Position numbers and translations under genes: made by a program | Shown: in pieces, positions 1,482 through 61,302 of the stretch | How the letters are laid out: each line of letters begins with the position of its first letter | Numbering within the stretch: position 1 is the first letter of the stretch | Source of the DNA: Vicinamibacterales bacterium | GTDB lineage: Bacteria; Acidobacteriota; Vicinamibacteria; Vicinamibacterales; UBA8438 | NCBI GenBank assembly: GCA_965207615.1 | Contig: CBDBMZ010000003.1 | Span: 139,854-203,853, forward strand | DNA length: 64,000 nt | Direction of reading: 5' to 3' | The notes under the pieces: generated by a model | What the model was told of the DNA's origin: nothing | The model's input: only the letters and a program-made list of their open reading frames with translations | The model's database searches: none

Positions 1482-1519
1482 CGTGCGACGAGAGCCTTCG
1501 GCCCGAAGAGCACGACGCC

Positions 1520-2074
1520 ATGTATTGCCACGTCAACGTGAGCACGGGCAGCCGCGGCACGGGCCAGTCGGCGGCGGCGAAGTACGACTACATCAGCCGC
1601 GCCGGCAAGTACGAGGCGGCCTGCCAGGACGAGGTGGTGCACCTCGAGTCGGGCTCGATGCCGTCGTTCGCGTCGTCGGACGCGCGCCTGTACTGGGCGG
1701 CGGCCGACTGCCACGAGCGGAGCAACGGGCGGCTCTTTCGATCGCTGACGGCGGCGCTGCCCAACTCGCTGGACCCTGCCGGTCGGCTGGATCTGGCGCG
1801 GAGCTTCGCGGCGCACGTGACGTCGGGCGAGTTGCCGTACACGCTGGCGGTGCACGCCGGCGAGTCGAAGAAGGCGGGGGTGGCGGACAACCCGCACCTG
1901 CACCTGGTGTTCTCCGAGCGGGTGAACGACGGGGTGGAGCGCGGGGCGGAGCAGTGGTTCCGGCGGGCGGCGCCGAAGAAGGGCGATCCGGCGTCGGGGG
2001 GCGCGAGGAAGACGGAGCGGACGAAGCCGCGGTCGTGGCTGGAGGAGACGCGACAGGCGTGGGCGGGGAGATGA
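1520..2074 (+). CDS. mobA: MOBQ relaxase, N-terminal nickase domain (0-frame product, 184 aa)
   Basis: Collinear with RSF1010 MobA residues 1 to ~185: STGSRGTGQSAAAKYDYISRAGKY, ERSNGRLFRSL, LPYTLAVHAG, NPHLHLVFSERVNDG (HxH metal site), KPRSWLEETRQAW. The frame stops at TGA 2072-2074 inside the conserved domain. Confidence 0.85.
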   Translation: MYCHVNVSTGSRGTGQSAAAKYDYISRAGKYEAACQDEVVHLESGSMPSFASSDARLYWAAADCHERSNGRLFRSLTAALPNSLDPAGRLDLARSFAAHVTSGELPYTLAVHAGESKKAGVADNPHLHLVFSERVNDGVERGAEQWFRRAAPKKGDPASGGARKTERTKPRSWLEETRQAWAGR

Positions 2075-5000: not shown

Positions 5001-6192
5001 CGACGCACTCATCGAGGCCCTCGAAGCGGAGGACCCGTCGTGGCGGTCTGGGATCCGCCCGGCCCGCATCGACCGGGCGCTCGACGTCGCCGAGCGGGAC
5101 GCCGGCCGCCGGGAGGTCGCCACTCGGCGACACCGGGAACACGAGGTGGTCCTGGAGGCGGAACAGCGCTTCCCCGACGCCACCAGCACGGCGTGCCAAT
5201 TCGCGGGTGGCCGTTTCGACGGGACCACGGAGGTCGGCCGTGCGGGCCGGCGCGTCTCGCAGGATCTCTCGGACCGCGCCCTCGTGAGAGCGCACGCGGC
5301 CGAGAAGGCCGAGGCGCCGGCGCCTCGCAACTTCGTTCAGCGGCTCTACGACTGGCTGCGGGATCGGCTCGAGCGGCTGTTCGGCCGTTCGCCCGGCCGG
5401 GCCGCGGAGGCCGCCGCCCTCGGGCCGGCGGCCTCCGCGGAGCGTCCGGCCGAAGCGGGACGGCCTCGACCCGCCGCCTTCGAGGAGCGGTACTGCCGGG
5501 AGTGGCCCGAGCACGCGGCCGACATCCGTCGTCCGGACTTCGAGAAGCTGGCCGCGGGCGCGTTGAGCGGCAACCGGCTCTTCGAGCGGGAGGAGCCCCG
5601 CTCGTCAAGATGGATCACGGTCGAACCGGGCGAGTTGCCGGCCGCTCTCGCCAAGCCCGCGCCGGCTTGGAGCGACAAGGCCGTCGAGGAGGTGACCCGG
5701 CGGGCTACAGTCTGGGACCCGGACCGGACCGAGGGCCGGCGGGTCGCCGAGGCGCACCTGGGCGGCTACGAGAGCCGGTTGCCGGCGGAGTACTCGCACT
5801 CGGCGGAATGGCAGGCGATCCTGAAGCGTGCGGAGGAGGCGGTCGGGAAGGCCCAGAACAGCTGGCGGTACAAGTGGGCCGACCGCCGGAAGGACGACCG
5901 GAAGAAGCGGGAGCTCGAGGCGACCGCTATCAACCGCGCCTGCGGCCGCGATGCGCGCCGCCTGCACGGGAAGATGATGGCGGGGCGTGAGGCCGCGCGG
6001 CCCGGCTGGGAGGTCACGGTCAGGATCCGGGCCGTTCAGGAGCTCATCCGGGACGAAGAGGCGACCCGTTTCAGACAAGAGCGGGAGCAGGCGCGGGAAC
6101 GGGAACAGGCGCAAGAGCGGGAGCGCCCCGCCGACAGGCCGCCGCCCGAGCAGAAGCGGCCGAGAGGCCGGGGACATGTTCTAGATCGATGA
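2065..6192 (+). CDS. mobA: Relaxase continuation in the -1 frame; the fused product would be ~1557 aa
   Basis: The -1 frame continues the MobA alignment without a gap: ..AWAG|EMNLAFERAGVDDRVTSESH.. versus RSF1010 ..AWADHANRALERAGHDARIDHRTL... The rest is an Ala/Glu/Arg-rich, coiled-coil-like extension in which I recognise no primase motif. Confidence 0.7.
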   Translation, partial: GEMNLAFERAGVDDRVTSESHATQLARARAAGDAAEEVRLLLNPPSLHIGPSAKHNWEDRPGRAQELKPDRYVAAEAAAASAEEVRSAHAPDVAEVAEARSRVAALDARIAALEAEVAAGERRAGLAAREESVRATSAGGQWLDEAHQSVRGDGRLTPGERERAVETVEGRLRADLAAREESLMATSTGSTLLKEEYGEAVAEAAAAQSFAKRESVLERVAQRVGEELSAREEALRSIPLGRQHLSAAEQARAVGPAGPPLAERESVVRAAEQRVGEELDRREERVLAATGDDRLLAGAAEELTERGAVSGDGGFAERALIIDRAEDLLEAERAEFGLKEADLRKDAAGEEFLRDARGDVLGAADREPETLADGWTVIDQAAAARARVEALGIGGMDLYHAHLADIDPKWGVDGNAATTRGNQDAALSAADSDVARLGRLRAVLSDEAAAARYREVLGDGPGRFDTADLDRALAAGEREREERAATAWAGLAAREESVRATSAGGQWLDEAHQSVLADAGGRLTLGERERAVETVEGRLRADLAAREASLMATSTGSTLLREEYGEGGAAAAAQSFAERESVLDRVAQRVDEELGAREEALRSVPLGRRHLSAAEQARTGGVADAPPTPAERESMVRAAEQRVGEDLDRREERVLAATGDDRLLAEAAEELAARGAVFGDSGFEEQALIIDQAEDLLEGERAGLELEEGKLLKAAGGEEFLRNARLDVLGDDDREAETLVDGWAVIDQASAAKARVEALGIGGLDLYHAHLAAVDAKWGVDGNAATTRVSQDAALSAAESDVARLGRLRAVLSDEAAAARYREVLGDSPDRFDTADLDRALAAGEREREDRAAAARRTADLETATEAAQAAAARSKINLRPAGVRAVYETGETHAAGIAAVERTTEALDAAADQGLPAGTVIDAWKTNRSAPGGIAAALAAATAAARLEEERAEARRKQAAIEKRSSRVKQLLADPASADALIEALEAEDPSWRSGIRPARIDRALDVAERDAGRREVATRRHREHEVVLEAEQRFPDATSTACQFAGGRFDGTTEVGRAGRRVSQDLSDRALVRAHAAEKAEAPAPRNFVQRLYDWLRDRLERLFGRSPGRAAEAAALGPAASAERPAEAGRPRPAAFEERYCREWPEHAADIRRPDFEKLAAGALSGNRLFEREEPRSSRWITVEPGELPAALAKPAPAWSDKAVEEVTRRATVWDPDRTEGRRVAEAHLGGYESRLPAEYSHSAEWQAILKRAEEAVGKAQNSWRYKWADRRKDDRKKRELEATAINRACGRDARRLHGKMMAGREAARPGWEVTVRIRAVQELIRDEEATRFRQEREQAREREQAQERERPADRPPPEQKRPRGRGHVLDR
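2437..4620 (+). repeat. Tandem direct duplication, 2 units of ~1.09 kb (~365 aa each), inside the relaxase extension
   Basis: Unit 1 starts at 2437 (gggctggccgctcgcgaggagtcggtgcgggcgac..) and unit 2 at 3532 (gggctggccgcccgcgaggagtcggtgcgggcgac..). The protein units run from GLAAREESVRATSAGGQWLDEAHQS to DRALAAGERERE, are highly similar, and differ by a few indels. Confidence 0.9.
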
Positions 6193-8109: not shown

Positions 8110-8724
8110 ATGAGCGAAGCAGTCACCGTGACTCTGGGACGCGACCCGGCCCAGCGACGGCGGGCGACCTACCAGGATGTGCTCGATGCCCCCGCCCATC
8201 GGGTCGCCGAGGTCGTTGACGGCGTGCTCCACACGAATCCGCGGCCGGCCATGCCGCATTCTTTGGCGAGTTCCCGACTGGGCGGCGAACTCACGGGACC
8301 ATTCGATCGGGGTCGCGGCGGCCCCGGCGGATGGTGGATCATCTTCGAGCCCGAGCTGCACTTGGGCGAGGATATCCTCGTGCCCGACCTCGCCGGTTGG
8401 CGGCGGGAGCGGATGCCTGTCTTTCCCGATGCGCCGTACGCCACGCTGGGCCCCGACTGGGTGTGCGAAGTGCTCTCGCCGTCGACCCGCAAGCTGGACC
8501 TCCACGGCAAGCGCGACGTCTATGGGCGTGAACAGGTGGGTCATCTCTGGCTCGTCGACCCCGCCGACCGCACCCTGGAGGCCTTCGAACTGCGCGAGGG
8601 CGAATGGGTGCTGATCGCCACCGCGCAGGATGACGCCCCCGTCAGCATCCGCCCCTTCGACGCCGTCACCTTCAGCCTCGGCGATCTCTGGCCGCCGAAT
8701 GTCGCCCCGGCCGAGGGGGGCTGA
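8110..8724 (+). CDS. Uma2-family (DUF820) putative endonuclease
   Basis: VPDLAGW..PDWVCEVLSPSTRKLDLHGKRDVYGREQVGHLWLVDP is the typical Uma2 PD-(D/E)xK-like core. GAGGAGG lies 5 nt (gcgac) upstream of the ATG. The stop codon lies inside 47-bp repeat copy 2. Confidence 0.8.
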   Translation: MSEAVTVTLGRDPAQRRRATYQDVLDAPAHRVAEVVDGVLHTNPRPAMPHSLASSRLGGELTGPFDRGRGGPGGWWIIFEPELHLGEDILVPDLAGWRRERMPVFPDAPYATLGPDWVCEVLSPSTRKLDLHGKRDVYGREQVGHLWLVDPADRTLEAFELREGEWVLIATAQDDAPVSIRPFDAVTFSLGDLWPPNVAPAEGG

Positions 8725-8775: not shown

Positions 8776-9303
8776 TCAGTTCGGAAAACCCCGCGTCAGA
8801 AGTCCATCGAGCGCCAGCTTGAACCACGCAGTGTATCCCGTCGGACGCTCTGCGAGCTCCCTTTGAATCGTGGGCACGGTCGCCCACTTCCATTCCTCCA
8901 CTTCTTGGTCGTCCGGTGCCGGAACACCACAGAACCGCCCAATCAGCACGTGATCGAACTCATGCTCCACGAGTCCGCCGTCCGTTGCTGCCCGGTACAC
9001 GAAGCCGAACACGACCCGCAGCGGGCAGTTGAACCCCATTTCCTCCTTCAACCGGCGCTCAGCAGCCCCAATCAGGGACTCTCCCGCCCTCGGATGGCCG
9101 CAACAGGTGTTGGACCAGAGACCGCCCGAGTGGTACTTGCCGGCCGCGCGCTTCTGCAACAGCAGGCGGTCGGTTTCGTCGAAGACGAAGATCGAGAACG
9201 CCCGGTGCAGGATTCCGTTCCGGTGAGCCGCCATCTTCTCCACGACTCCCGTTTGCCGGTCGTCGCCGTCGACGGCAATCAGGAGCGTATCGGAATCCTG
9301 CAT
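8776..9303 (-). CDS. idi: Isopentenyl-diphosphate delta-isomerase, type 1 (Nudix fold)
   Basis: LHRAFSIFVFD..LLLQKRAAGKYHSGGLWSNTCCGHPRAGE..AAERRLKEEMG matches the type-1 IDI signature, including the catalytic Cys and Glu context. Confidence 0.85.
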   Translation of the reverse strand: MQDSDTLLIAVDGDDRQTGVVEKMAAHRNGILHRAFSIFVFDETDRLLLQKRAAGKYHSGGLWSNTCCGHPRAGESLIGAAERRLKEEMGFNCPLRVVFGFVYRAATDGGLVEHEFDHVLIGRFCGVPAPDDQEVEEWKWATVPTIQRELAERPTGYTAWFKLALDGLLTRGFPN

Positions 9304-9382
9304 GGGTGTTCACCTCTTAACCGCGGCATCGACGGAATCGTCGACTGGATGTTTGCCGCCGGGAAGTCGTCGGCCCGCCGGG

Positions 9383-10651
9383 TCACCATTCTCGCGAATC
9401 TTCCTCGAACACCGAGGTCGGCAGGCTGTAGGAATGCTCGTACTCGCCGAGATTCGAGACTTCGAGCATGCTCCTGAACCGCGACCTCGACCGATACGCG
9501 GCCAGCGGCGGCGCGAGCCTCCGCAGCATCCTGTCGCCGAAATTGCGCAGCCGCAGCAGCGGAAGCTCCTTCTTCAGTCTTCCGGCGGGGAACCTCAGCT
9601 CGTCGGCCAGCCCGTCCCCGATCATTTCCCGCGACACCTGGTACATGTACTTCGCCATGGCGCGCCGCGCCTTGGGTTCGGTGAACCCCAGAACGATCGG
9701 CGCGCTGTTGACGATGCTGTTCGCCATGATGATCGCGTCCTCGTCGGGCCGCGGCTCGCACAGCGCTCCAATCTCGAACCACCTGACCGACGAGGCGTAG
9801 TCCCGGAACAGGATCTCGTCGGGTATCCCCATGAGGCGGCCGGTGTACCGCCAGACGTGCACGTACCCCTCGCGTTCCCGGTCGCTGAAATCTCCGCCGA
9901 GGTTCGATACATGCTGCAGCAGCCTCCCCGAGAAGGCGGCGGCGCCGAGCAGCATGTGCGCCGCGCTGAGGGGGACCCCGTATACCGACCGGTCCCATTC
10001 GTCGGAAGTCGAGACCAGCCGCCTCGCCTGCGCGTGCACGAGCCGGATCCTGAGGCTCAGCTTCCACCCGTCGCCGCCCGGCTCGATGCCTCCGGGCAGG
10101 TACTGTTCCAGGAGCTGCAGCAGGTTCTGCTTGAGCCGCCGCACGCCGTTCGTCATGATGCGGCTGCGAATGCGGAACGACTTGCTGATGAGCGTGGAGA
10201 AGCCCTCGATGATGGCGCCGCCCACCAGGGCGCCCATCACCATCTCGGAGTTGCGAAGGAAGGCCCGGGTCGCGTCGCGGGCGAGATCGCGGTCGAACCA
10301 GTCGGGCACGACGCCCGAGTCAGCAATCAGGTCACGCAGCGACTTGGGCGTGTCGGCCGGCAGATCGCTGAAGCTGTCGAGCGTCCTCGCGATGATTCCG
10401 TGCACGTCCGCCGGCGACGCGTTCGCCGCCAGCTCGGCGACCACCGCGTCGGCCACCGGGTCCCCCAGGGTCGTGTGGCGGATGTACCTCTCGGCCAGCA
10501 CGGGGTCGACCTTGCGGGCGGTTTCGTAACCGGCGACGTAGGCGGTCGGGATGTTCATCATGCCGGAGAAACGCTCGGTGAGGGGGGGTGCGCAACGAGG
10601 AGCGGAACCGCCTGCGTCGGGTGAACGCGGCGGCGCGGTCATCGCCGTCAC
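9383..10651 (-). CDS. MpaB/DUF2236-family oxygenase (the family that includes the latex-clearing protein Lcp)
   Basis: Length and the ..LSLRIRLVHAQARRL.. (R-x-x-H-A) block are typical of DUF2236. Its start overlaps the upstream P450 stop by 4 nt. Confidence 0.65.
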   Translation of the reverse strand: MTAMTAPPRSPDAGGSAPRCAPPLTERFSGMMNIPTAYVAGYETARKVDPVLAERYIRHTTLGDPVADAVVAELAANASPADVHGIIARTLDSFSDLPADTPKSLRDLIADSGVVPDWFDRDLARDATRAFLRNSEMVMGALVGGAIIEGFSTLISKSFRIRSRIMTNGVRRLKQNLLQLLEQYLPGGIEPGGDGWKLSLRIRLVHAQARRLVSTSDEWDRSVYGVPLSAAHMLLGAAAFSGRLLQHVSNLGGDFSDREREGYVHVWRYTGRLMGIPDEILFRDYASSVRWFEIGALCEPRPDEDAIIMANSIVNSAPIVLGFTEPKARRAMAKYMYQVSREMIGDGLADELRFPAGRLKKELPLLRLRNFGDRMLRRLAPPLAAYRSRSRFRSMLEVSNLGEYEHSYSLPTSVFEEDSREW

Positions 10652-12048
10652 CTCGGGCGCTCCCGGATGGTCACTCGAAAGCCGAGGACGCCTACCCCGA
10701 TGTTCTCGCGTTTCGGCGGGCGGCTCGACGCCGGCTCGATCCGCAGGCGCTGGGTCATGGTCGCCAGCGCCAGGACGAACAGCATCGCCGCCAGATCCGC
10801 GCCGGCGCAGGTGTGCGGGCCGCTCCCGAAAGGGATGTACGCCTGTTCGTGTCGGACCGGTCCGTCACGCCGCGAGTCCTCCAGCCAGCGTTCCGGCCTG
10901 AACTCGCCGGCCCGCGTCCAACCGTCGGCGCGGTGGTGGAGCACACGCATGCCGACGTACACCAGCGTTCCCTTCGGAACCGGATAGCCGCCCAGCACGC
11001 AGTCTTCCTCCGCCCGCCTGGCCCGCATGACATAGGGCGGCGGCTCCAGACGCAACGTCTCCTTGAACACCGCCTGCACGTACTCGAGCCTCTGCAAGTC
11101 GCCCGGCTCCACCGGCCGGTCCCCCAGCACGTCCGAGACCTCTCTCTCCACCCGATCCCGGATGGCCGGATCGCGTGCGACGTGGTGCAGCGCGAAGCAC
11201 AACGCGGCCGTCGGCGCATCCGTGAACGCGCACAGGAAGGCGATGATCTCGTCGCGCAGCGCCCGGGGGCTCGGGTACGACCACCCGCACAGACCCCGGC
11301 GCGCGGCCCGGACGAGGTGTGAAACCAGATCGCGGCCCTCGTGGGCGGGGTCGCCGGCGCGTTCGATGGCGCCGTATATCGCCGCGTCCAGCGCCGCGGT
11401 ATCGGGCGCCCGCCCCATCTTCTTGATGGACTGGCCGAACGGCAGGAGATCCAGAAGCATCGCGGCTTTCAACAGCCTGCAGATCCGCAACCCCTGATCG
11501 CGGTCCGCGTCGCGGCCGAGGACGGCCTCCGCCAGGGCGTCCCACACGTAGCGCTCCACCTCCGGCCGCAGATCCAGCGCCCGCCCCGGCGCCAGCCTCT
11601 CTCGGAGCCTCAGGGCGTGCCGGCCGATGACCTCCGCGTAGCCGGGAAGGCGGTCCTTCGTGAACGCCGTGGCCATGAGCTCGGCGCGCCGGCGGTGCTC
11701 CTCGCCGTCGTGCACGGGCAGGCAGCCGTGCTCCATCAGCGGGTTCGGCTCCCGGCCGCCGGGCGCCCAGGGCGGAAAGGACTCCGCCCGCGTGACGAGG
11801 ACCTCCCGGACGAGGTCGGCGTTGAAGACCGCGCAACACCTCAGGGAAGGAAGACTGAAGAACACGATGTCTCCATGGTCCCGGTAGAGCCGCTCCATGA
11901 ACTCCGGAAAGCCGGTGAACCGCTCGACGTAGTTGCGCAGCCGCCGGCCCCGCGGTCCCGGGGGACGGGCCGGCTTGTCGTCGGCGGAACGCTGCCCGGC
12001 CATGTCCTCCGAGCTGGGAGCCGGCTCTTCTTTGGCGGAACGCTGCAT
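10648..12048 (-). CDS. Cytochrome P450
   Basis: Heme loop FGSGPHTCAGADLA (FxxGxxxCxG) and the ETLRL (ExxR) motif. The N-terminus carries PPGPRG. Confidence 0.9.
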   Translation of the reverse strand: MQRSAKEEPAPSSEDMAGQRSADDKPARPPGPRGRRLRNYVERFTGFPEFMERLYRDHGDIVFFSLPSLRCCAVFNADLVREVLVTRAESFPPWAPGGREPNPLMEHGCLPVHDGEEHRRRAELMATAFTKDRLPGYAEVIGRHALRLRERLAPGRALDLRPEVERYVWDALAEAVLGRDADRDQGLRICRLLKAAMLLDLLPFGQSIKKMGRAPDTAALDAAIYGAIERAGDPAHEGRDLVSHLVRAARRGLCGWSYPSPRALRDEIIAFLCAFTDAPTAALCFALHHVARDPAIRDRVEREVSDVLGDRPVEPGDLQRLEYVQAVFKETLRLEPPPYVMRARRAEEDCVLGGYPVPKGTLVYVGMRVLHHRADGWTRAGEFRPERWLEDSRRDGPVRHEQAYIPFGSGPHTCAGADLAAMLFVLALATMTQRLRIEPASSRPPKRENIGVGVLGFRVTIRERPR

Positions 12049-12067
12049 CGCGATGTCCTTCTTCGAA

Positions 12068-13477
12068 TCAGCTGCCGGGCTCCCGTCGCTCGACGCGCGC
12101 CCGTATCGGCCCCTTCACCCCCAGCCCGAGCAGCTCGGCCCGGAACGGCGTGGGTGATTCGAGGGTCAGACGCATGCCCTGCGCACAGCCCGCGAGGGTC
12201 AGCACGACGAGCACGGTGGCGAACTCCCAGCCGAGGCAGCTGTGGGGCCCGATGAAGAACGGCGTGCAGGCATGGTCGGGACGGGAACCCCCCGAGCCGT
12301 CCATCCAGCGCTCCGGGCGGAACTCCGCCGGCCGCTCCCAGACCGCGGGGTCCCGGTGCGATTCGCCGAGGCACGGTTGCGCAATCGTGCCCCTGGGAAT
12401 CCGGTAGCCGCCGACGACGCAGTCCTCCGACGCCTGCCGCCAGTGCGACGTGCCGGCGTAGGAAGGTGGTCTCAGCCGGAAGCTCTCGCTGGCGACGGCC
12501 CGTGCGTACGGAAGGCGGTCGAAGTCGGCCCCGGCGACCGGGCGGTCACCGAGCACGTCGTCGACCTCCCGCTCCAGCCGCTCGCGAACTTGGGGATTCC
12601 GATCGAGCAGCTCGAGGCTCCACACCAGCCCCATCATCGGCGAGTCGATGGAGCCGAGCACGATCATGTAGATCTCGTCCCGCAGCTCCCGGTCGCCGGC
12701 GGCGAACGGGCAACCGTCCTGCGCGTCGGCGGTGCGGACGACGTGGGAGACCATGTCCTCGCCGCCGTGCGAAGGGTCGCGGGCCTTCCGCATGGCGGCG
12801 TACACGGCGTCGTCCATGCGCTCGATGGCGCGCCGGGCGCGCCGGTTCGCGGGCAGGGGCAGGCGCTTCAGCGCGCCGGACGCCGGGAGGTAGCTCAGCG
12901 CCCAGTCGCGCTTTATCGCCGCGCCGGCATCCCACGCCACTTCCGGCGGAACCCGCGGCTCGCGGCCGAGGAGGGCGTCGAGCAGAGCGCCGCACGCGAG
13001 GCGGCCGGTCTCGGCCTTGTAGTCGATGGTCTGCCCCGCCCCCCAGCGCTCCTTCATCTCGTGGATGTTGTCGGCGATGAGGTCGGCGTAGCGGCGCATG
13101 CGGCGCTCGACGAACGCGCCCCCGAACACCTCGCGCACGCGTTGGTGGTGCTCGCCGTGGTCGCGCGGCATGCAGGGCGTCGCGATGACCCCGAAGCCCG
13201 CGGGATCGTTGAACGCCGGGAACATGTCGGCCTTCTCGACGAGGACCTCGCGGATCAGGTCCGCGTCGAACAGGGCGCAGAAGTCCAGGCCCGGAATCCG
13301 GTAGTGGACGATCCTTCCGTATTCCTCGTGAAGCCGCCTCATCATGCCGCGAAAATCGCGCGAGCGCTCGATCAGGTTGCGTATCCGCCGTCCCTTCGGA
13401 CCGGGAGGCAGTCGCCGATTGCCGTTGTCGGAGCCCTGCATCGATCGCCGTTCCTTTCCTGTTTTCCCTTCCCGCAC
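12068..13477 (-). CDS. Cytochrome P450, paralogue of the downstream one
   Basis: Heme loop FFIGPHSCLGWEFA and the ESFRL motif. The N-terminus PPGPKGRRIRNLIERSRDF parallels PPGPRGRRLRNYVERFTGF of its neighbour. An alternative start is the ATG at 13441. Confidence 0.9.
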   Translation of the reverse strand: MREGKTGKERRSMQGSDNGNRRLPPGPKGRRIRNLIERSRDFRGMMRRLHEEYGRIVHYRIPGLDFCALFDADLIREVLVEKADMFPAFNDPAGFGVIATPCMPRDHGEHHQRVREVFGGAFVERRMRRYADLIADNIHEMKERWGAGQTIDYKAETGRLACGALLDALLGREPRVPPEVAWDAGAAIKRDWALSYLPASGALKRLPLPANRRARRAIERMDDAVYAAMRKARDPSHGGEDMVSHVVRTADAQDGCPFAAGDRELRDEIYMIVLGSIDSPMMGLVWSLELLDRNPQVRERLEREVDDVLGDRPVAGADFDRLPYARAVASESFRLRPPSYAGTSHWRQASEDCVVGGYRIPRGTIAQPCLGESHRDPAVWERPAEFRPERWMDGSGGSRPDHACTPFFIGPHSCLGWEFATVLVVLTLAGCAQGMRLTLESPTPFRAELLGLGVKGPIRARVERREPGS

Positions 13478-13528
13478 TCCGCGCCCGCCGCCCGCGTCGC
13501 AACGCGCCGCGCCCGTCCGCGCGCCGTG

Positions 13529-16500
13529 TCAGCCGACCGGCGCCGGCCGTGCCGTTGCAGCCGGCCCGCTCATGGCCGTTCGGGGCATCGTGACGCCGAA
13601 GTACACGGTGGCCAGGGCCGGCACGACCAGCATCAGGATCGCCGTCGCGAACAGCAGCCCGAAGCCGAGCGAGACGCCGAGCGGGCTGAGGAACTGCGCC
13701 TGAATGCTCCGCTCGAAGATCAACGGTGCGAAGCCCAGGAACGTCGTCAACGACGTCAGCATGATGGGGCGGAAGCGCCGCTTCGCGCCGTCGATGACCG
13801 CGGTCCTCACGGGCGCCCCGAGCCTGAGCCGCTCGCAGATGAAGTCGATCATCACGAGAGAGTCGTTGACGACGACGCCGGTGAGTCCGATGACGCCCCA
13901 CATGGACGTGGCGCTCAGACCGATGCCCATGATGAGGTGGCCGAGGACGGCCCCCACGATGCCGAACGGTATGGCCGCCATCACGAGCAGCGGCATGGTG
14001 TATGAACCGAACGGAATGGCGAGCAGCGCATAGATCGCCAGCAGGGCGAGAAGCAGACCGCGGGTCAGCCCCTCGAACGACTCGGCCTGCTGCTGTTGCT
14101 GGCCGCCCACCGCATACGTCAGACCCGGATAGGCGCTCTCGAGCTCGGGCAGCGCCGTGGCCGTCAGCACCGCGGTCGCTTCGCCGCCGGTGATGACGCC
14201 GTCGTCGACGTCCGCCGTGACGGTGACGATGCGGCGGCCGGCCTTGCGCCGGATCGACGACGGCGATTCCCCCAGGCTCACGGTGGCGACCCGGCTCAGG
14301 GGCACGTCGGCGCCGCCGGGCGTGCGGATGAGGTAGTCCTCGACGTCGGCTATCGTGTCGCGGTCCTCGGGCGGCAGCCGCACGTAGACGCGGACATCCT
14401 CCCGCCCGCGTTGCACGCGCAGGGCCTCTTCGCCGAAGAACGCCGCGCGCACCTGGCGGGCCAGCGCGTCGAGCGTCAGTCCGAGGGTCCGCGCCGCGGG
14501 CCGCAGCTCGATCTGCAGCTCCTGCACGCCCGACGCGTGGTCGGAGCGCACGTCGAAGACCCCCTCGATCCCGCGCAGGCTGTCGACGACCGACTCGGCG
14601 ATCGGACCGAGGCGGTCCGGCTCCGGGTGCGCCAGCTCGACCTGCACCGGGACGCCGAGGTCGAGCAGGTCGGCGCCGAAGGTCAGGCTGCGCGCGTCGG
14701 GAGCTGGGCCCGCCTGCCGCCGCCAGGCCTGCGCGAACGTCTCCGCGGCGATGTCCCGGACCTCGGCGGCAGGCAGCCTGAACTCCACGGCGGCGACGTT
14801 GGCCCGGGGATTCAGGTCGGGCGTCTGCTCGATGGAGCCTCCCAGGGTTCGCGCCCTCGCGCCGACCGTCAGGTTCACACCGGTCAGCAGATCGGGCGCG
14901 CCGTCGGGGCGACCGCGCGACAGGTCGTCGATGGCCCGTCGCCCGGCCGCTTCCAGCTCGCGCGCCAGCTCGGCCGTTCGGTGCGCGGGAGTGCCTTCCG
15001 GCATCACCAGGCTGGCCGTGACGATGTCCGATTCGACGTCCTCGATGAAGATGACGGGGACCGTTCCCGATCCGACCAAGCCGATGCACAGGATGACGGC
15101 GGCCACGCCGCCCGCGATCACGACGGCCGGCTCGCCGGTGGCCAGCCGCAACCCCCGGTCGAGCGGCCCTTCGATGAACCACCGCAACCCGCCGTCCACG
15201 CGGCCCTGGATCCACGAGAAGAAGCGCTCGACCGGGTTGGCCGGCGGCAGCGCCGGGTCCGGCAGGTGGGACAGGTGGTGCGGCAGCACCAAGAGGGATT
15301 CGACCAGCGAGACCAGCAGCACCCCGATCAGGATGATCGAGAGCGGGCGCATCATGGCGCCGATGGGGCCGGGGACGAGCAGGAGCGGCGCGAAGGCGCC
15401 GACGGTGGTGAGGACCGCGAAGACCACCGGGCGCCCGACCCGTTGAGCGCCCCGAATCGCCGCCGCGAGGGGTGGCGTCCCCCTTCGCCGCTCGGCATGC
15501 ACGTTCTCGGCGACGACGATGGCGTCGTCGACCACGATGCCGACCGCGAGAATGAAGGCGAAGAGGGAGATGGTGTTGATGGAGACGTCGAACGCCAGCG
15601 CCACCGCGAGGGCGCCGACGAAGGAGATGCCGATGCCCGCCGCGACCCACGCCGCCAGGCGGATCTGGAGAAACATGGCCAGCGCCGCGAGGACGAGCAG
15701 CAGGCCCAGCGCGCCGTTCTCCCGCAGCAGGTCCAGGCGGCTCTCGTACACTTCCGCGTCGTTGTTCCAGATCTCGACGGCCACGCCAGCGGGCAGCGAC
15801 GGGACGACCTGCCGCGCCAGATGGTCTTCGACGGCGGCCACGACCTCCATGACCTGCTCGCCGGAGGACCGGTACACCTCGACGAACGCCGCCGGCCGTC
15901 CGTTGTAGCGGACGATCAGGTCGGTGTCGGCGAAGCCGTCGCGCACCGTCGCCACGTCGCCGAGGCGGACGGCGGTCCCGTCGGCCCTGCTCAGGACGAC
16001 GATCTCCTCGAAGTCGTGCTGGTGGTAGCGCCGGCCGGTGGTGCGGACGCGCACCTGCGCGTCGCGCGTCTCCAGGCGGCCGGCCGACAGGTCGAGCGAG
16101 CCCGCGCGGACCGCGTCGGAGACGTCGGCATGCGTCAGCCCCAGCGCGCGCAGCCGGTGCAGCGGTACCTCGACGGAGACTTCATAGGCGCGCACCCCGC
16201 TCGTCTCCACCTGGGAGACCCCCGGAAGCGCGGCGAGACCGTCCTCGATGCGGTACGCCAGCTCCTTGAGCGCGCGTTCCCCGACGTCGCCGTACACCAC
16301 CAGGCGAAGGACGCTCTGGCGGTTGGTCATCTCGCGAATCCGCGGGCGTTCGGCCCGGGCCGGCAGCGTCCGAATCCGGCCGACGGCGGCCTCGACCTCG
16401 TCGAGGGCGCGGCCCGCACCGGCGCCGGCCGCGAGTTCGACGACCACGGAGGCCAGTCCCTCGGCGGCGACGGACGTCACCTCGCCGACGCCCTCCAGCG

Positions 16501-16750
16501 TCCCGACCTGCTCCTCGATCCGGACGACTATCGACTCCTCCACCTCGTTCGGGGTCGCTCCGGGGTACGGCACGGTAATCTCGATGGCGTCGAGAGACAC
16601 CGTGGGAAACGGCTCCTGCACCAGGCCGGGCAGCGACAGCAACCCCGCCGCCACGATGAAGAACATCAGGAGGTTGGCGGCCACCCCGTTCCGGGCCATC
16701 CAGGCGACGGGCCCGCGCGATTCCTGCGCGAAGCGGTCGTCCGGGCTCAA
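13529..16750 (-). CDS. RND efflux transporter, inner-membrane permease (AcrB/HAE-like)
   Basis: 1073 aa. The N-terminus ..NGVAANLLMFFIVAAGLLSLPGLVQEPFPTVSLDAIEITVPYPGATPNEVEESI.. and the 12-TM architecture are typical. It overlaps the adaptor stop by 4 nt. Confidence 0.9.
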   Translation of the reverse strand: MSPDDRFAQESRGPVAWMARNGVAANLLMFFIVAAGLLSLPGLVQEPFPTVSLDAIEITVPYPGATPNEVEESIVVRIEEQVGTLEGVGEVTSVAAEGLASVVVELAAGAGAGRALDEVEAAVGRIRTLPARAERPRIREMTNRQSVLRLVVYGDVGERALKELAYRIEDGLAALPGVSQVETSGVRAYEVSVEVPLHRLRALGLTHADVSDAVRAGSLDLSAGRLETRDAQVRVRTTGRRYHQHDFEEIVVLSRADGTAVRLGDVATVRDGFADTDLIVRYNGRPAAFVEVYRSSGEQVMEVVAAVEDHLARQVVPSLPAGVAVEIWNNDAEVYESRLDLLRENGALGLLLVLAALAMFLQIRLAAWVAAGIGISFVGALAVALAFDVSINTISLFAFILAVGIVVDDAIVVAENVHAERRRGTPPLAAAIRGAQRVGRPVVFAVLTTVGAFAPLLLVPGPIGAMMRPLSIILIGVLLVSLVESLLVLPHHLSHLPDPALPPANPVERFFSWIQGRVDGGLRWFIEGPLDRGLRLATGEPAVVIAGGVAAVILCIGLVGSGTVPVIFIEDVESDIVTASLVMPEGTPAHRTAELARELEAAGRRAIDDLSRGRPDGAPDLLTGVNLTVGARARTLGGSIEQTPDLNPRANVAAVEFRLPAAEVRDIAAETFAQAWRRQAGPAPDARSLTFGADLLDLGVPVQVELAHPEPDRLGPIAESVVDSLRGIEGVFDVRSDHASGVQELQIELRPAARTLGLTLDALARQVRAAFFGEEALRVQRGREDVRVYVRLPPEDRDTIADVEDYLIRTPGGADVPLSRVATVSLGESPSSIRRKAGRRIVTVTADVDDGVITGGEATAVLTATALPELESAYPGLTYAVGGQQQQQAESFEGLTRGLLLALLAIYALLAIPFGSYTMPLLVMAAIPFGIVGAVLGHLIMGIGLSATSMWGVIGLTGVVVNDSLVMIDFICERLRLGAPVRTAVIDGAKRRFRPIMLTSLTTFLGFAPLIFERSIQAQFLSPLGVSLGFGLLFATAILMLVVPALATVYFGVTMPRTAMSGPAATARPAPVG

Positions 16751-17988
16751 CGGTCCGCTCCCGGTCCGGTGCGCACCGCCATGCCCTCGGTGGCCACCTG
16801 AAGCCCGCCCACGACGACGGCGTCGCCTTCCCGGAGGGGGCCGGTCACGAACAGGGCGTCGTCCGCGCGCTGCAGCACGCGCACGGGGACAATCGCCACC
16901 CGGCCTCCGCGCACCACCCAGACCTCGTCACCGGGCCTGAGGGCCGGGCGCCGAACCCGGAAGTAAGTGTCCGGGGCAATCCCCTGAATCTCGACCTCAA
17001 CGAACATGCCCAGCAGCAGCGGCGGGCCTCCGGACGGCACCGGCCGGCCGCCGCCGCTACCAGTCCCGCTGTCGCGCGCGTCCGCCGGGACACCGGCGGT
17101 GAACGGCCGCGGCACGCGGACGATCACGTCCAGCGTCCGCGTCTGTTCGTCGAGGGCCGTCTCCACGCGGTCCGCGTACCCCGGCCAGGCGTAGCGGCCG
17201 ACACCGTGCTCGGCGACCACGCGAACCGGGATCCGCCGGTCTGCCTCACCGGCCCGCAGGCTCCACAGGTCTGGCACGAGGGCGGCGTCCGCGTCGGACA
17301 GCGGAACCACGACCTCGACCGCGTCGGAGGCGTACAGCCGTCCGACGCTCTCGCCGGCGGCCACGACCTGACCGGCGTCGAGGGACTCGATCCGCACCAC
17401 GCCGTCGAACGGCGCGCGGACCTCGGTCCGGGACAGCGCCAGCTCGGCGTCCGCCAACTCGGCGTCGTGCCGGCGCAGAACCGCCTGCGCCGCCTCCAGC
17501 TGCGGCTGCCAGAGAGCCAGCGGGCCTGCATCCGCCGCCGGGGCGCCGTCCGCGCGGCGGCGCCGGAAGGCCTCGTACTGCGCACGCGCGATGCGCGCCT
17601 CTTCCTGGATGCGAAGAATCTCCACCTGCTGAACCGCGATGTCGGACCGCACCTGTTCGACACGGTTGCGGTAGCCGGCATCGTCGATGCGGAAGATGGC
17701 CTGTCCCTTGCCGATCCGCCCGCCGCTCTGAAAGGCCGGCTCCACCCAGGTGACCCGGCCCCCGACCTCGGCCGCGATATCGATCTCGGCGTGGGCCCGG
17801 ACCGTGCCGGCGGCCAGAACGGGAATGGCGCCGTCGCCGGCAACCACCGGCTCGGTGACCGCGAACGGCGCCCGCGGGGGCGGCTCCCGGCGCTCGGGCG
17901 CCGGGCGCGTGGAGATCAGGTAGCCGGCCGCGGCCAGCGATCCGGCCAGCAGGGTCACGACCATGACGAATCGCGGCAGTCGGCCCAT
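16747..17988 (-). CDS. RND efflux periplasmic adaptor (MFP/HlyD-like)
   Basis: N-terminal anchor, a coiled-coil hairpin (..QVEILRIQEEARIARAQYEAFRRR..LEAAQAVLRRHDAELADAELAL..) and beta-barrel segments. It abuts the OMF gene. Confidence 0.85.
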   Translation of the reverse strand: MGRLPRFVMVVTLLAGSLAAAGYLISTRPAPERREPPPRAPFAVTEPVVAGDGAIPVLAAGTVRAHAEIDIAAEVGGRVTWVEPAFQSGGRIGKGQAIFRIDDAGYRNRVEQVRSDIAVQQVEILRIQEEARIARAQYEAFRRRRADGAPAADAGPLALWQPQLEAAQAVLRRHDAELADAELALSRTEVRAPFDGVVRIESLDAGQVVAAGESVGRLYASDAVEVVVPLSDADAALVPDLWSLRAGEADRRIPVRVVAEHGVGRYAWPGYADRVETALDEQTRTLDVIVRVPRPFTAGVPADARDSGTGSGGGRPVPSGGPPLLLGMFVEVEIQGIAPDTYFRVRRPALRPGDEVWVVRGGRVAIVPVRVLQRADDALFVTGPLREGDAVVVGGLQVATEGMAVRTGPGADR

Positions 17989-19527
17989 CTATCCGCTTCG
18001 CCCCTCGGTCGGGGTGGAGGCCGGCACGATGCGCGGCCCCGCCCTCAAGTCCGACGCGACCCAGCCCCCGCCCAGGGCGCGGTGGACCGCAAGCCTGGCC
18101 AGCGCCACGTCCCGCTCGCCGCCGGCGAGCGCCGACTCCGCGTCGAGGAGAGTGCGCAGTGCGTCCAGGAAATCCGCGTAGCCTCCAACGCCCGATCCGT
18201 ACCGCTCCGCCCGGAGATCGACTTCGGCCTGCGCCTCCTCCCGCCGGGATTCGAGCAGGGCGCGGCGCCGGTCCTCGTATCGCATCCCCGCCAGCGCGGT
18301 TTCGACCTCGTTGACCGCCGTCACCACGGTGCGTCCGTAGGCGGCGGCCGCCTCGTTGAAGCGGGCCTCCGCAAGCGTGACGTTGCTCCGAAGCCGGCCG
18401 CCGTCGAAGACCGGCAACAGCAGATTCGCGGCCAGGTTGCTGAACCACTGATGGACGTTGAAGAGTCCGGCGACCTGCGAGTTCTGCAGCCCGAGGGTCC
18501 CGGCGAGGGTGAGCGAGGGGCGAAGCTCGGCGCGGCGGACCTCAATGTCGTAGCCGGCCGCTTCCAGTCGGTGTCCGGCGGCCCTCACGTCCGGGCGCTG
18601 GTGCAGGAGATCGGCCGGAATCCCCGCCGGAACGGCGGTCGCAACCGGCGACGGGGACGGGGAGTCCCCGAGTAGCTCCTCCAGGTCGCGCCGGTAGCCG
18701 CCCAGCATCACCACCAGGCGTCCCTCGGCGCCGGACAACCGATGCTCCAGTTGCGGAAGCCGCGCCTGCGTGTCGAGCAGATCCTGGCGGACCCTGTAGG
18801 TGTCCAGGGAATCCGACAGCCCGCGACGGTAGCGCGTCTCCGCCACCGCCTCCCGCTCCTGGAGCACATCGACCGTCTCGCGGAGGAGCACGACTTGTCG
18901 GCGGTAGCCGACGATCTCGAAGTACGAGGCGATGGTCTCGGCGACGATGCCGATGCGGGCCGCCCGAAAATCCGATTCCGAGGCCAGATACGCGGCTCCG
19001 TCGGCGAGCCGGCTGCTGTCGGCGCGCCCCCAGAAATCCAGCTCGTAGGCGAAGTCGGCGCCCAGCGAAAAGGTGGTGAGCCCCAGTCGATCGGGCAACG
19101 TGAAATCGTCCGTCGCGACGCCGAGCCCTTCGCCGAGTCCCAGCTCCTGGAGTTGCGCCCCGATGCCGGCGTTGGTCGGCGAGCTGAAGTCGTCGACGGA
19201 CGCGCGAGCCCGTATCGTGGGGAGAAACGCGGCGCGCGCGATGCGGGCCGCTTCCCGCGCGTGCTGCACGCGCGCAACCGCCACCGCCATGTCGTGGTTG
19301 GAGGTGAGCACCGACTCGACGATCGTGTCGAGCATCGGGTCGGCGAAGGCCCGCCACCATTCGACCGAATCGTACGCTCCCGTCTCCTCGCTGTTGCTGA
19401 ACTCGGCGGGCAGTTCGTCGGCAATGGCCGTCGGCGACGACACGATCGGCTCGGGAAGCCGGGTCCCGGGCGCGAGCGAACACGCAGAGAGGGCGCAACC
19501 CGCAAACAGCAGCGGGGCAGTCGACAT
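17989..19527 (-). CDS. Efflux outer-membrane factor lipoprotein (NodT/TolC family)
   Basis: Lipobox LLFAGC after the Met at 19527 (the ORF is open to 19617). It has the duplicated TolC-type repeat and ends ..LAVHRALGGGW. Confidence 0.85.
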   Translation of the reverse strand: MSTAPLLFAGCALSACSLAPGTRLPEPIVSSPTAIADELPAEFSNSEETGAYDSVEWWRAFADPMLDTIVESVLTSNHDMAVAVARVQHAREAARIARAAFLPTIRARASVDDFSSPTNAGIGAQLQELGLGEGLGVATDDFTLPDRLGLTTFSLGADFAYELDFWGRADSSRLADGAAYLASESDFRAARIGIVAETIASYFEIVGYRRQVVLLRETVDVLQEREAVAETRYRRGLSDSLDTYRVRQDLLDTQARLPQLEHRLSGAEGRLVVMLGGYRRDLEELLGDSPSPSPVATAVPAGIPADLLHQRPDVRAAGHRLEAAGYDIEVRRAELRPSLTLAGTLGLQNSQVAGLFNVHQWFSNLAANLLLPVFDGGRLRSNVTLAEARFNEAAAAYGRTVVTAVNEVETALAGMRYEDRRRALLESRREEAQAEVDLRAERYGSGVGGYADFLDALRTLLDAESALAGGERDVALARLAVHRALGGGWVASDLRAGPRIVPASTPTEGRSG

Positions 19528-19739: not shown

Positions 19740-20005
19740 CGCCCCGGCCGACTCGGCTGCGCCGTGCGGTGGGAGGTGCCCGACAGGAAGGTCTGCGCCC
19801 TGCTGACGCAACGCATGGCCGGAGCGCTGTCAGCACCGATGCGCGAAGGTCTTGATGCGCTGGTCGCCGTCGACGACGACCAGCCGCACTCGCCCCTGAA
19901 CCGGGTCAAGGCGAACTCGTCGGTCCGCGGCATGAAGCGGCTGCTGGTGAGGCTGGAGCTGAGCGAGGCGACCTATGTCCTGGGAGTCGACGTGGGCTGG
20001 GGCAA
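19740..20005 (+). pseudogene. Tn3-family transposase fragment (region around aa ~190-260 of TnpA)
   Basis: ..REGLDALVAVDDDQPHSPLNRVKANSSVRGMKRLLVRLELSEATYVLGVDV.. parallels Tn21 TnpA ..[50 protein letters not shown].. (from memory). No N- or C-terminal continuation is present. Confidence 0.55.
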
Positions 20006-20243
20006 ACAGCAACTACCAGCGGATCCGTCGTCCTCTCGGGCAACGCCCGCCGGATGCTGACCCAGGGCGGGCCGGACAGGGCCCGCGAGCGACGCGGGCC
20101 GCACTGTATCCGATCCGTCCGCCGCGGCCCGCGTGCGGGTCTGTCGGCCCGCCGCTTCGGGGCGTGCCGCTCCGTCCGCCCCTGCTTCAACGCCGTGCCA
20201 GGTCGAGAGGTTGGCTTGCACGCACAGTCGTCCCATCCGCCCC

Positions 20244-20496
20244 CGGAGCGGGGTTGAAGGGCGACCCCGCTCCGAACCCCGGCAGCCGCCGGCGGGGCGG
20301 ACGCCGCCCCCGGCCGGACCTGGAACCGCGGTCCGGCCTCAATCCTGCGGCCGTGAAGGGCGACGGCCGCGGGATGGGCGGCGAACCCCTGCCCTTGCGA
20401 CGGCGCACCCGGCCGGCCTGAAGACCGGGCCGGCCAGACGGGTGCGCCTCTCGCAGATTCCGGGTCAAGGACGGCGGTGGCGAAGAGCGACCGCCG
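20244..20496. repeat. Array of 5 GC-rich stem-loops with different stems but a shared loop, TGAAG(G/A)(G/C)CG
   Basis: H1 20244-20274 cggagcggggt/TGAAGGGCG/accccgctccg. H1b 20313-20337, loop TGGAACCGC. H2 20347-20370, loop (T)GAAGGGCG. H3 20411-20435, loop TGAAGACCG. H4 20472-20496, loop GGCGAAGAGCG. A weaker sixth lies near 20632-20649. Confidence 0.7.
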
Positions 20497-20809
20497 CCGC
20501 TGAACGCCCGGGGCGACGAATCTCCGCTTTCCACCTTGACGGCGCCGGCAAAAACGCGGCTTCGCCGCAGGCCGGCACTTCCTCGCCACCACCACCGCCG
20601 TACCCGACGAGAGAACCGCTCTCTCAGGCCGGCCGGCCTGAACGCCGGCGCCGAAAACCATCGGCTGGTCGATTAGCCGCCCCGGGCAGCGGTCCCCTGC
20701 GGGGCTCCCTGACTCCGGAATCGCGGGCAGGGGTCCTCCGGCGCGACGTGTGCGCCCGAGCGCGGGTCGGCATGAGGCCGGACGCGACTCGCCGCAGGAG
20801 GAGTGAACG

Positions 20810-21559
20810 ATGACCAGCACCCGCGTCCGCAACATGGGGAGGGACCGGTTCCGCGACGGCGACGGGTCCGTCGAACGGCCGAGCCGACAGGGGGATCTGT
20901 TTCCCGAGGACCGGCCGATACGAGTCGGCTCCGAGATCGTCGTGCGCTCGATCGACAGCGGCGGCTCGACCATCCGCGCCCTGCGGGTGACCGCGCAGCT
21001 GCGCCTGCAGGGCTCGGCGCTGGCCGCGGCGCTGGCGAGCCCGGCCGTGAGCTCGGCCCTCGCCGACGTGTCGTATCGCACCGGCGCCGGCCACACGACG
21101 GGCCTCTCGGTGGTCTACCAGCAGGTCGAGCCGCTGACCACGGTCGTCCGCGAGTCGGCCGTGAGCGCCGGGCAGGAGTTCGAGGTCACGTGGCGGGGCG
21201 CCGACGGCCTCCTCGACCAGATGCCGGACCCCGAGCCCATCGACGGCAGTCCGACGCGCGCGGCCGTCGACTGGCACGAGCTGGCGAAGCACGCTCCAGA
21301 CGTCGACGACGAGCGGTCGATGCCGGCCCTCGCCGACCGGAAGGTCCTGCGCCGGCGCGGCCGCGTGACGGTCAGGCGCGGGTTCCTGCGCCCGCCGATG
21401 TCGACCGAGGCCGTCGCGCGCATGGTCGAGCTTCGCGCCCAGGGCCTCGGCTTCAAGCGTATCGCGCGGGCGGTCGGCTGCGCGCCCATCACCGTGTCCC
21501 GCTATCTGCGCAGCTTCGAGGAGGAATGGAATGGACGCCTCCCGCCCTCTGATTGGTAG
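20810..21559 (+). CDS. Hypothetical protein with a C-terminal HTH (resolvase/sigma-like)
   Basis: AGGAGG RBS. The C-terminus reads STEAVARMVELRAQGLGFKRIARAVGCAPITVSRYLR. I do not recognise the ~170-aa N-terminal part. Confidence 0.65.
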   Translation: MTSTRVRNMGRDRFRDGDGSVERPSRQGDLFPEDRPIRVGSEIVVRSIDSGGSTIRALRVTAQLRLQGSALAAALASPAVSSALADVSYRTGAGHTTGLSVVYQQVEPLTTVVRESAVSAGQEFEVTWRGADGLLDQMPDPEPIDGSPTRAAVDWHELAKHAPDVDDERSMPALADRKVLRRRGRVTVRRGFLRPPMSTEAVARMVELRAQGLGFKRIARAVGCAPITVSRYLRSFEEEWNGRLPPSDW

Positions 21560-43567: not shown

Positions 43568-43655
43568 TTCGGGAGGCCCACGGTCACCGGACGTGGCGTC
43601 TGATGCGCGGCCTACTCGTCGAAGAAACTGCCGCGGGACCTGAAGGAACGTCGTC

Positions 43656-61118: not shown

Positions 61119-61302
61119 CTCGCAAGGCCATGTTGGGCAACCTGCCCTGAACGGCAGCCGCCAACCTGACAACTCCCCGTCTCGCTGACGGGCCGTGGCG
61201 CACTTTCTCAGGCGCCCACCAGAAGAGTGGTAGATTGTTCATGGGATGCTGCGACATGTTCGTGTGACTTGGAGGCGGGAGATGCCAGGTGTGCGGGAGA
61301 CC

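Follow-up and report, generated by a model that had tools for sequence, protein, structure and literature searches.

Cleavage of a C=C bond with O2 is common to the characterised members of the MpaB/Lcp family of oxygenases (DUF2236, PF09995), namely the rubber oxygenase Lcp, the fungal enzyme MpaB' and trans-anethole oxygenase; Lcp and trans-anethole oxygenase are haem enzymes. Here we describe a member of this family that is encoded in a seven-gene block, together with a type-1 isopentenyl diphosphate isomerase (Idi), two cytochrome P450s (P450a and P450b) and a tripartite RND pump. The block occupies positions 8776–19527, on the minus strand, of a 64-kb stretch of DNA (the window) that is identical to part of the 6.6-Mb contig CBDEVO010000003.1 of a metagenome-assembled genome (MAG) of Vicinamibacterales (Acidobacteriota). 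We see an even chance that it represents the tailoring-and-export part, plus Idi, of a terpenoid biosynthetic cluster whose product would be an oxidised, possibly cleaved head-to-head isoprenoid made from the bacterium's own precursors. We give the same odds to the proposal that the block has been reduced from a cluster for the biosynthesis and export of a terpenoid, one which is specific to sponge-associated bacteria and has spread among them horizontally.

Which described systems come closest? In the monoterpene island of Castellaniella defragrans, terpene-degradation enzymes are coupled to an RND pump in a catabolic setting. Islands of this type share with the block the coupling of terpenoid enzymes to an RND pump and are not known to contain Idi, a squalene-synthase (SQS)-type or MpaB-family gene or a P450 pair. 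Bacterial C30/C40 carotenoid and squalene/hopanoid clusters bring together Idi and a head-to-head synthase (CrtM, CrtB or SQS), and relatives of the block likewise combine Idi, a short-chain prenyl synthase and a head-to-head synthase of the SQS_PSY family. HpnN-type clusters also dedicate an RND-superfamily transporter to an isoprenoid lipid; HpnN works without an outer membrane factor (OMF). The block differs from these clusters in its tailoring set, which consists of P450s and an MpaB-type oxygenase, and in its transporter, which is a tripartite pump of the HAE-1 type.

For the oxygenase itself, the two points of reference are LcpK30 of Streptomyces sp. K30 (PDB 5O1L/5O1M), a haem-b rubber dioxygenase, and the fungal MpaB/MpaB' of mycophenolic acid formation. 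LcpK30 is secreted and belongs to a rubber-catabolic context, whereas the window protein lies in a biosynthetic-type cluster with a pump. MpaB' is described as an intracellular tailoring enzyme that oxidatively cleaves the farnesyl side chain during mycophenolic acid biosynthesis (bioRxiv 10.1101/524025; PMC6900556). It falls into the same Pfam family as the window protein, a likeness at the level of the family. MpaB' is eukaryotic, bound to the endoplasmic reticulum membrane and acts on a meroterpenoid, whereas the window protein is bacterial, predicted to be soluble and accompanied by no polyketide or aromatic prenyltransferase genes.

Architecture of the Seven-Gene Block

An earlier note on this DNA had claimed seven intact minus-strand genes, and all seven are indeed present as open reading frames (ORFs) with profile matches. 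The pump genes come first. The OMF is a NodT-type lipoprotein (17989–19527; PF02321 OEP, E 2e-45; TIGR01845, 293 bits against a cut-off of 210). Read from the ATG at 19527, it starts with MSTAPLLFAGCALSA, directly followed by the cysteine of a lipobox (LSA/C); alternative starts lie at 19443 (automatic call) and 19617 (longest ORF). Its orthologues in related clusters are 58–73% identical. The adaptor, a periplasmic membrane fusion protein (MFP; 16747–17988), matches TIGR01730 RND_mfp (145 bits against a cut-off of 95) and HlyD_3. The RND permease (13529–16750; ACR_tran, E 1e-162) has 1073 residues and a TTG start. Together, an ACR_tran permease, an RND-type adaptor and a NodT/TolC-type OMF make up a complete HAE-1 set, in which the permease is a divergent member with MdtB, MexB and AcrB as its nearest solved structures (E 5e-71 to 1e-58).

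The enzymes follow. P450a (PF00067, E 3e-49) spans 12068–13441 with 457 residues, or reaches to 13477 with 469 residues if the GTG there is used, and P450b (10648–12048; PF00067, E 3e-53) has 466. The two P450s are paralogues, about 38% identical to each other, and carry the N-terminal motif PPGP(K/R)G that had been remarked upon before, as PPGPKG in P450a and PPGPRG in P450b. Then come the MpaB/Lcp-family protein, a putative haem oxygenase of 392 residues (9383–10561; PF09995, 82 bits against 23, E 9e-23), and Idi, the last gene of the block (8776–9303; 175 residues; NF002995, 169 bits against 127; TIGR02150, 121 against 106).

The junctions are tight. The stop codon of the OMF gene directly meets the adaptor gene, and the intergenic gaps of 51, 19 and 79 nt agree with those given earlier. 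The adaptor and RND genes overlap by 4 nt as described, with the sequence TTGA (TTG start, TGA stop) rather than ATGA. A second 4-nt overlap, between the P450b and MpaB genes, exists only if MpaB starts at the GTG at 10651. The ATG at 10561 appears the more likely start, since most homologues and an independent gene call begin there, and leaves a gap of 86 nt.

Recurrence of the Block in Other Genomes

About 100 related loci share homologous DNA with the window, all of it within 8.5–19.5 kb, the extent of the block itself. Searching GTDB species representatives with the MpaB protein returned 172 relatives, the best 80 of which (at least 57% identity) were examined. All 80 are from MAGs. Their hosts are Acidobacteriota (Vicinamibacteria, Thermoanaerobaculia (Candidatus Multivorans), Holophagales and others), Gemmatimonadota (Longimicrobiales, Palauibacter and others) and a few Gamma- and Alphaproteobacteria. 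The clade appears to be restricted to sponge-type MAGs, and the public runs in which the cluster sequence occurs carry the label sponge metagenome or derive from three coded organisms.

Linkage was counted in 75 non-redundant loci from 66 genomes, within 10 kb of the MpaB gene. A P450 gene is found in 40 of them, an RND gene in 44 and an SQS-like gene in 37, with P450 and RND genes together in 27; at least one of the three kinds is present in 70 of the 75. In the reciprocal search, seeded with the SQS-like protein and examined for the best 80 of 499 loci, 38 copies belong to the clade of the MpaB-linked SQS genes, and 30 of these adjoin pump, P450 or MpaB genes. The other 42 are more distant relatives from other environments; none adjoins such genes, and they double as a background control. 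Of 13 Vicinamibacteria loci, 7 have Idi as well, at varying positions in the cluster. The combination of MpaB, P450 and RND genes, whose synteny the earlier note had singled out for a search, thus returns across many genomes. Its gene order and orientation vary between lineages, and this shuffling argues for selection keeping the genes linked.

Could unrelated genes simply have come to lie side by side on a mosaic island? Such an origin would accord with the mosaic surroundings, with the lack of a regulator in the block and with a promoter scan that detected nothing. It is nevertheless very improbable and is contradicted by the synteny, the same families occurring together in 70 of 75 loci from three phyla as against 0 of 42 control loci. 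The block is moreover repeated as a unit in another genome, and homology ends at its edges. The block is not a chance juxtaposition.

The repeated unit is found in a Vicinamibacterales MAG, CBDBOU (loci L002–L006), where six genes in the order OMF-MFP-RND-P450-P450-MpaB form a 10.27-kb repeat (L002:1113–11386) with 99.4–99.7% identity between copies. The left side has at least three distinct junctions and the right side two, and several copies lie at contig ends. The right end of the repeat cuts idi after about 27 codons, which suggests that idi was part of the ancestral unit and was truncated there. No transposase is present within the unit. The confined homology, the recurrence, the repeat unit and the junction-spanning RNA contigs described below bear out the earlier view that the seven genes act as one functional module.

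The MpaB protein is 69–70% identical to homologues from Longimicrobiales and Pseudomonadales, as against 61–65% to those of several other Vicinamibacterales. Identities across phyla thus exceed several within the order, and this comparison of sequences indicates that the cluster has spread horizontally among hosts of Acidobacteriota, Gemmatimonadota and Pseudomonadota.

Two further families were considered as members and not counted. SDR genes lie near MpaB in three contexts and belong to different SDR subfamilies, and SRPBCC genes recur only in some gammaproteobacterial, Thermoanaerobaculia and Palauibacter loci. In one Candidatus Palauibacter locus (L022), an insertion sequence (IS) element with HTH_Tnp_1 and rve transposase domains is inserted between two P450 genes (L022:7079–8547); upstream of it are a fragment of an RND gene and a gene of the SQS_PSY family.

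Isoprenoid Genes in Fuller Relatives

In relatives, the link of the block to isoprenoids is reinforced beyond Idi. One Vicinamibacterales MAG (L102) has the order Idi, SQS-like, OMF, MFP, geranylgeranyl-reductase family, RND, P450, P450, MpaB, where the reductase-family protein is a flavoenzyme matching TIGR02032 (223 bits against 159). In L101/L075, a polyprenyl synthase (PF00348) of the type that makes farnesyl or geranylgeranyl diphosphate (FPP/GGPP) lies beside the SQS-like gene. A 701-residue ORF just after the P450 gene of another locus (L007:18783–20888) fuses an SQS-like domain to a full IspH, the hydroxymethylbutenyl diphosphate (HMBPP) reductase (446 bits against 420). Both Asp-rich motifs, DTLED and DSxxD, are retained in the SQS-like proteins, whose scores fall well under the cut-offs for SQS, HpnC, HpnD and CrtB. 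In Thermoanaerobaculia and Holophagales loci, the tightest pair is MpaB with the SQS-like gene, and gammaproteobacterial versions consist of MpaB, two P450s and an SRPBCC protein, with neither pump nor SQS-like gene. Neither a desaturase (CrtN, CrtI) nor a cyclase (SHC, OSC) was seen in the annotated loci. The statement in the earlier note that terpene synthases, prenyltransferases and regulators are lacking holds for the seven genes of the window and does not extend to the relatives, which do carry isoprenoid synthases.

How might such a pathway run? Isopentenyl and dimethylallyl diphosphate (IPP and DMAPP) would be condensed to FPP or GGPP, supplied through Idi and, in the fuller versions, through FPP/GGPP synthase or IspH. 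The divergent SQS-like enzyme, encoded in the clusters of relatives and not in the window, would then form a linear head-to-head isoprenoid. Tailoring would take place in the cytoplasm, where between one and three E-class P450s and the MpaB/Lcp-type haem oxygenase would act, joined in some clusters by a flavoenzyme of the geranylgeranyl-reductase family; the Lcp-like dioxygenase would probably cleave a C=C bond of the isoprenoid. Finally, the HAE-1 pump would carry the product, an amphiphilic compound, through both membranes and out into the tissue of the sponge. We infer this order of steps, as well as the nature of the substrate and the role of the pump in export, from the composition of the clusters. 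For the window copy, which has no scaffold synthase, isoprenoid genes at another place in the genome must supply the substrate, unless it enters from outside the cell.

The same isoprenoid genes would also suit a module for the cell envelope, in which an endogenous lipid of the squalene/hopanoid-precursor type is modified and carried to the outer membrane by the RND protein, as HpnN does, without any diffusible product. Besides the linkage to SQS-like genes, a weak similarity of the permease to HpnN (E ~6e-4) points in this direction, as do the acyl carrier protein, LpxL-type acyltransferase and ketoacyl-synthase genes that adjoin the MpaB and SQS pair in Holophagales and Thermoanaerobaculia. 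These acyl-lipid neighbours occur only in some lineages, though, and may reflect shared ancestry. A full set of OMF and adaptor, of the HAE-1 and not the HAE-3 type, is an architecture for expulsion from the cell, and we regard the envelope module as decidedly unlikely.

The Oxygenase and the P450s

The window MpaB protein matches LcpK30 at E 1e-10 (phmmer), with 17–19% identity. Its AlphaFold model, computed with 27 homologues, has a mean pLDDT of 84.9 and a pTM of 0.86, and Foldseek places LcpK30 at the top (5o1l/5o1m; TM 0.62–0.67, probability 1.0), followed by trans-anethole oxygenase (8s1j; probability ~1). The earlier note had proposed comparing its haem ligands with those of Lcp. In Lcp, His198 is the proximal haem ligand and is 100% conserved, and Arg195 and Arg202 are structural (PMC5522427). 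The corresponding residues of the window protein are His176, Arg173 and Arg180, which are invariant in the 27 homologues; across this region, RLVHAQAR aligns with RMVHAAVR. On the distal side of the Lcp active site, Arg164 and Thr168 are essential and Lys167 is a ligand (PMC5522427). In the phmmer alignment, Arg164, Lys167 and Thr168 are replaced by Asn146, Gln149 and Leu150, a reading in which a shift of helix register is possible. The model and the conserved proximal residues identify the window MpaB as a member of the family with the family fold and a predicted haem enzyme.

Its N-terminus (MMNIPTAYVAGYETARK) shows neither a twin-arginine nor a hydrophobic signal, and residue 6 onwards is helical in the model. 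LcpK30, in contrast, is secreted and not cytoplasmic. Since the twin-arginine translocation (Tat) signal is missing and the Lcp distal residues are absent from the alignment, the window protein, as judged from its sequence, is not a secreted rubber oxygenase of the Lcp type. The isoprenoid C=C substrate class of LcpK30 does fit the genomic context of the window protein. By analogy, the logic of the window enzyme would be closer to that of fungal MpaB', a pathway enzyme that shortens a prenyl chain during biosynthesis, than to that of Lcp, and the reaction is probably the C=C cleavage typical of characterised relatives.

Several genomes (L013, L015, L040, L011/L028 and L058) have more than one MpaB-family gene, two or three paralogues being adjacent or part of one cluster. 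The three tandem paralogues of L013 are 32%, 33% and 60% identical to the window protein.

The P450s carry the expected signatures, as read from their translations: the Cys-ligand motif is FFIGPHSCLG in P450a and FGSGPHTCAG in P450b, and the ExxR motif is ESFR and ETLR, respectively. The nearest structures of P450a are 7wzl and CYP170A1 (3dbg; E ~5e-33) and those of P450b are 7wzl, CYP97A3 and CYP3A; the remaining matches are assorted eukaryotic and BM3-type P450s, and the best PDB E-value is only ~1e-33. NCBIfam equivalog scores of both proteins are far under the cut-offs. In a large-database search made for P450a, no named or characterised P450 reaches 40% identity, and all relatives at or above this level are metagenome or MAG proteins with either no name or a generic one. 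Both thus appear to be E-class enzymes of an unnamed family, P450a being a soluble one, whose substrate is not readable from similarity. A role in sterol or carotenoid metabolism, to which weak similarity to CYP97, CYP120, CYP170 and CYP17 could point, was rejected as too unspecific (E 1e-20 to 1e-33, far below family cut-offs). No signal peptide was found in P450a, P450b or the MpaB protein, which places their chemistry in the cytoplasm.

The presumed I-helix of P450b reads AFTDAPT, with Ala where the Thr of the acid-alcohol pair is expected, and that of P450a reads GSIDSP; both are readings of the translation made without a reference alignment.

Evidence for Transcription

One sponge metatranscriptome contains contigs that are 88–97% identical to the block and cover all seven genes. 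Four of the six junctions are bridged: OMF/adaptor (17663–18375), adaptor/RND (16623–17069), RND/P450a (13227–13545) and MpaB/Idi (9280–9612). The genes share a strand, are separated by gaps of 0 to 86 nt and have no terminator-like site between them on the minus strand; the two such sites detected lie on the plus strand only, below shuffle expectation. A sigma-70 promoter scan detected none, a result of little weight for an acidobacterium. The junction-spanning contigs support, and do not prove, a single transcript, as they are unstranded and come from a related strain.

Biosynthesis or Detoxification

The earlier note had offered two candidate roles, the cleavage and detoxification of polyisoprenoids and the export of an oxidised terpenoid made from host precursors. 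Neither finds favour among the relatives: the genes that accompany MpaB elsewhere speak more for biosynthesis from precursors of the bacterium itself than for either.

The main rival is nonetheless a detoxification or catabolic module for isoprenoids of the host, such as sponge terpenoids, prenylated quinones, sterol side chains or carotenoids. The P450s would hydroxylate such a compound, the MpaB-type oxygenase would cut its prenyl chain and the RND pump would expel the compound or its products, giving tolerance in a chemically defended sponge. An MpaB clade seemingly confined to sponge-type MAGs and spread across phyla is what this explanation would predict. It would likewise account for the amplification of the block to at least three copies in the CBDBOU genome, for IS elements beside or inside clusters and for a pump of the HAE-1 multidrug type, as well as for the lack of a scaffold synthase in the window and for gammaproteobacterial loci that have MpaB and P450s with neither pump nor SQS-like gene. 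It gives no reason, however, for the linkage to Idi (7 of 13 Vicinamibacteria loci), to SQS-like genes (37 of 75 loci), to FPP/GGPP synthase or to the SQS-IspH fusion, and the clusters contain no genes for beta-oxidation, aldehyde dehydrogenase or uptake. RND pumps capture their substrates from the periplasm or the outer leaflet, whereas the enzymes are all cytoplasmic. For these reasons detoxification seems to us rather unlikely.

Several observations count against terpenoid tailoring and export as the role of the block. A module for detoxification or resistance would just as typically be amplified in many copies, lie next to an IS element and include an HAE-1 pump. A tblastn search of the 64-kb window with SQS-like queries returned no member of the SQS_PSY family, and scans of the cluster and of flanking ORFs showed no prenyl or terpene synthase, the rest of the window not having been searched for terpene cyclases or prenyl synthases. 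The source MAG (CBDEVO) is also absent among the best 80 of the 499 SQS-like loci. The biosynthetic reading of this particular copy therefore rests on its relatives, in which the SQS-like proteins themselves reach 97 bits against the squalene-synthase cut-off of 287. With the distal residues of Lcp replaced, the chemistry of the oxygenase may differ, and the P450s have no redox partner (ferredoxin or reductase) within the seven-gene block. As for expression, the P450a/P450b junction has no RNA contig, the P450b/MpaB junction is covered in part, and DNA carry-over into the unstranded contigs is possible. No product or biochemical data were found for any member of the cluster.

Flanking DNA

The earlier note had placed the block on mobile DNA amid pseudogenes. 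This setting is plausible and only partly shown. In its favour, the window contains an intact IS110 transposase gene (22495–23520; profile 325 bits against 140) and a tyrosine integrase gene (41410–42552) that adjoins a truncated copy of a pyrroloquinoline quinone (PQQ)-dehydrogenase gene. The truncated copy, a C-terminal fragment of 236 residues (42742–43578), is 77–87% identical in DNA to 60296–61129, the 3' end of a full-length gene (59376–61118), and may be an integration-site remnant or a pseudogene. The relaxase call was not reproduced: a precomputed MobA/MobL match on a 1557-residue ORF did not return with Pfam or NCBIfam, either for the whole protein or for its thirds, and is not relied on. 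An origin from a plasmid was also considered and found no support, the 11-kb block matching only short conserved RND stretches in PLSDB (megablast).

Downstream of the block lie a Uma2 gene and an SDR gene. In sponge metagenome assemblies, the Uma2 stretch just downstream of idi (8234–8667) and a second stretch at 19952–20800, about 0.4–1.3 kb upstream of the OMF start, have contig depths 3- to 8-fold above that of the cluster and many indel variants. They look like multi-copy elements that flank the block. Pfam finds nothing in the upstream stretch except a helix-turn-helix (HTH) domain at the end of the ORF at 20810–21559.

Other features lie further away. The ORF of the precomputed MobA/MobL match, a giant one of 1557–1569 residues (1483–6192; ~75% G+C) with an ORF of nearly equal length on the opposite strand, contains an internal tandem duplication of ~1.1 kb with 85–95% identity (repeats at 2432–3132 and 3527–4236). 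ARAGORN reports a 91-nt tRNA-like sequence with an aberrant anticodon at 31577–31667, where Rfam has no tRNA; it may be what is left of a tRNA that was formerly a target of integration. Rfam detects no RNA family in the window.

Concluding Remarks

Biosynthetic gene clusters (BGCs) of this general type are known; the combination of an SQS-like enzyme, an intracellular MpaB/Lcp oxygenase, P450s of a new family and an RND pump is unusual and uncharacterised. The view that no nameable pathway matches the block has held, as none was found among described ones. Literature on MpaB/DUF2236 oxygenases, on P450, RND and terpene genes of sponge symbionts, on Lcp in sponges, on squalene cleavage and on 7WZL yielded no description of the cluster at the gene level or in biochemical terms; a preprint on 'cytochrome P422' mentions DUF2236 in passing only.

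In surveys of sponge microbiomes, terpene is the most abundant predicted BGC class, and widespread terpene families match nothing in MIBiG (PMC11832590; PMC9426513). These families, which are published without gene-level description, may include the cluster of the block; SQS-containing relatives of the block would be detected as sponge terpene clusters. The window copy has no SQS-type core gene and would therefore probably be missed by standard BGC finders. Other versions without SQS probably escape in the same way, and surveys may undercount the module.

The relevance of the block lies mainly in sponge symbiosis and natural-product research. Terpene clusters, the commonest predicted class in sponge microbiomes, are essentially uncharacterised, and a conserved, apparently expressed module of 10–12 kb that is shared across phyla is a compact target for heterologous expression, which might connect a set of bacterial genes with a terpenoid found in sponges. 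In one genome the module is present in several copies, a sign that its dosage may be under strong selection inside the host. A tentative and more far-reaching picture, which we hold to be possible if doubtful, is that horizontal transfer has given a head-to-head isoprenoid pathway to sponge symbionts in three phyla or more. An intracellular Lcp-like haem dioxygenase and P450s of a new family would cut and oxidise the scaffold, the resulting apo-terpenoid being pumped into the host tissue. If so, the product would be a previously unrecognised secreted metabolite specific to the symbiosis, either a signal or a defence compound, and the enzyme would have the first biosynthetic role for a bacterial member of the MpaB/Lcp family. 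The known scope of the family, secreted rubber degradation and the tailoring of fungal meroterpenoids, would then widen to include the tailoring of terpenoids in the bacterial cytoplasm.

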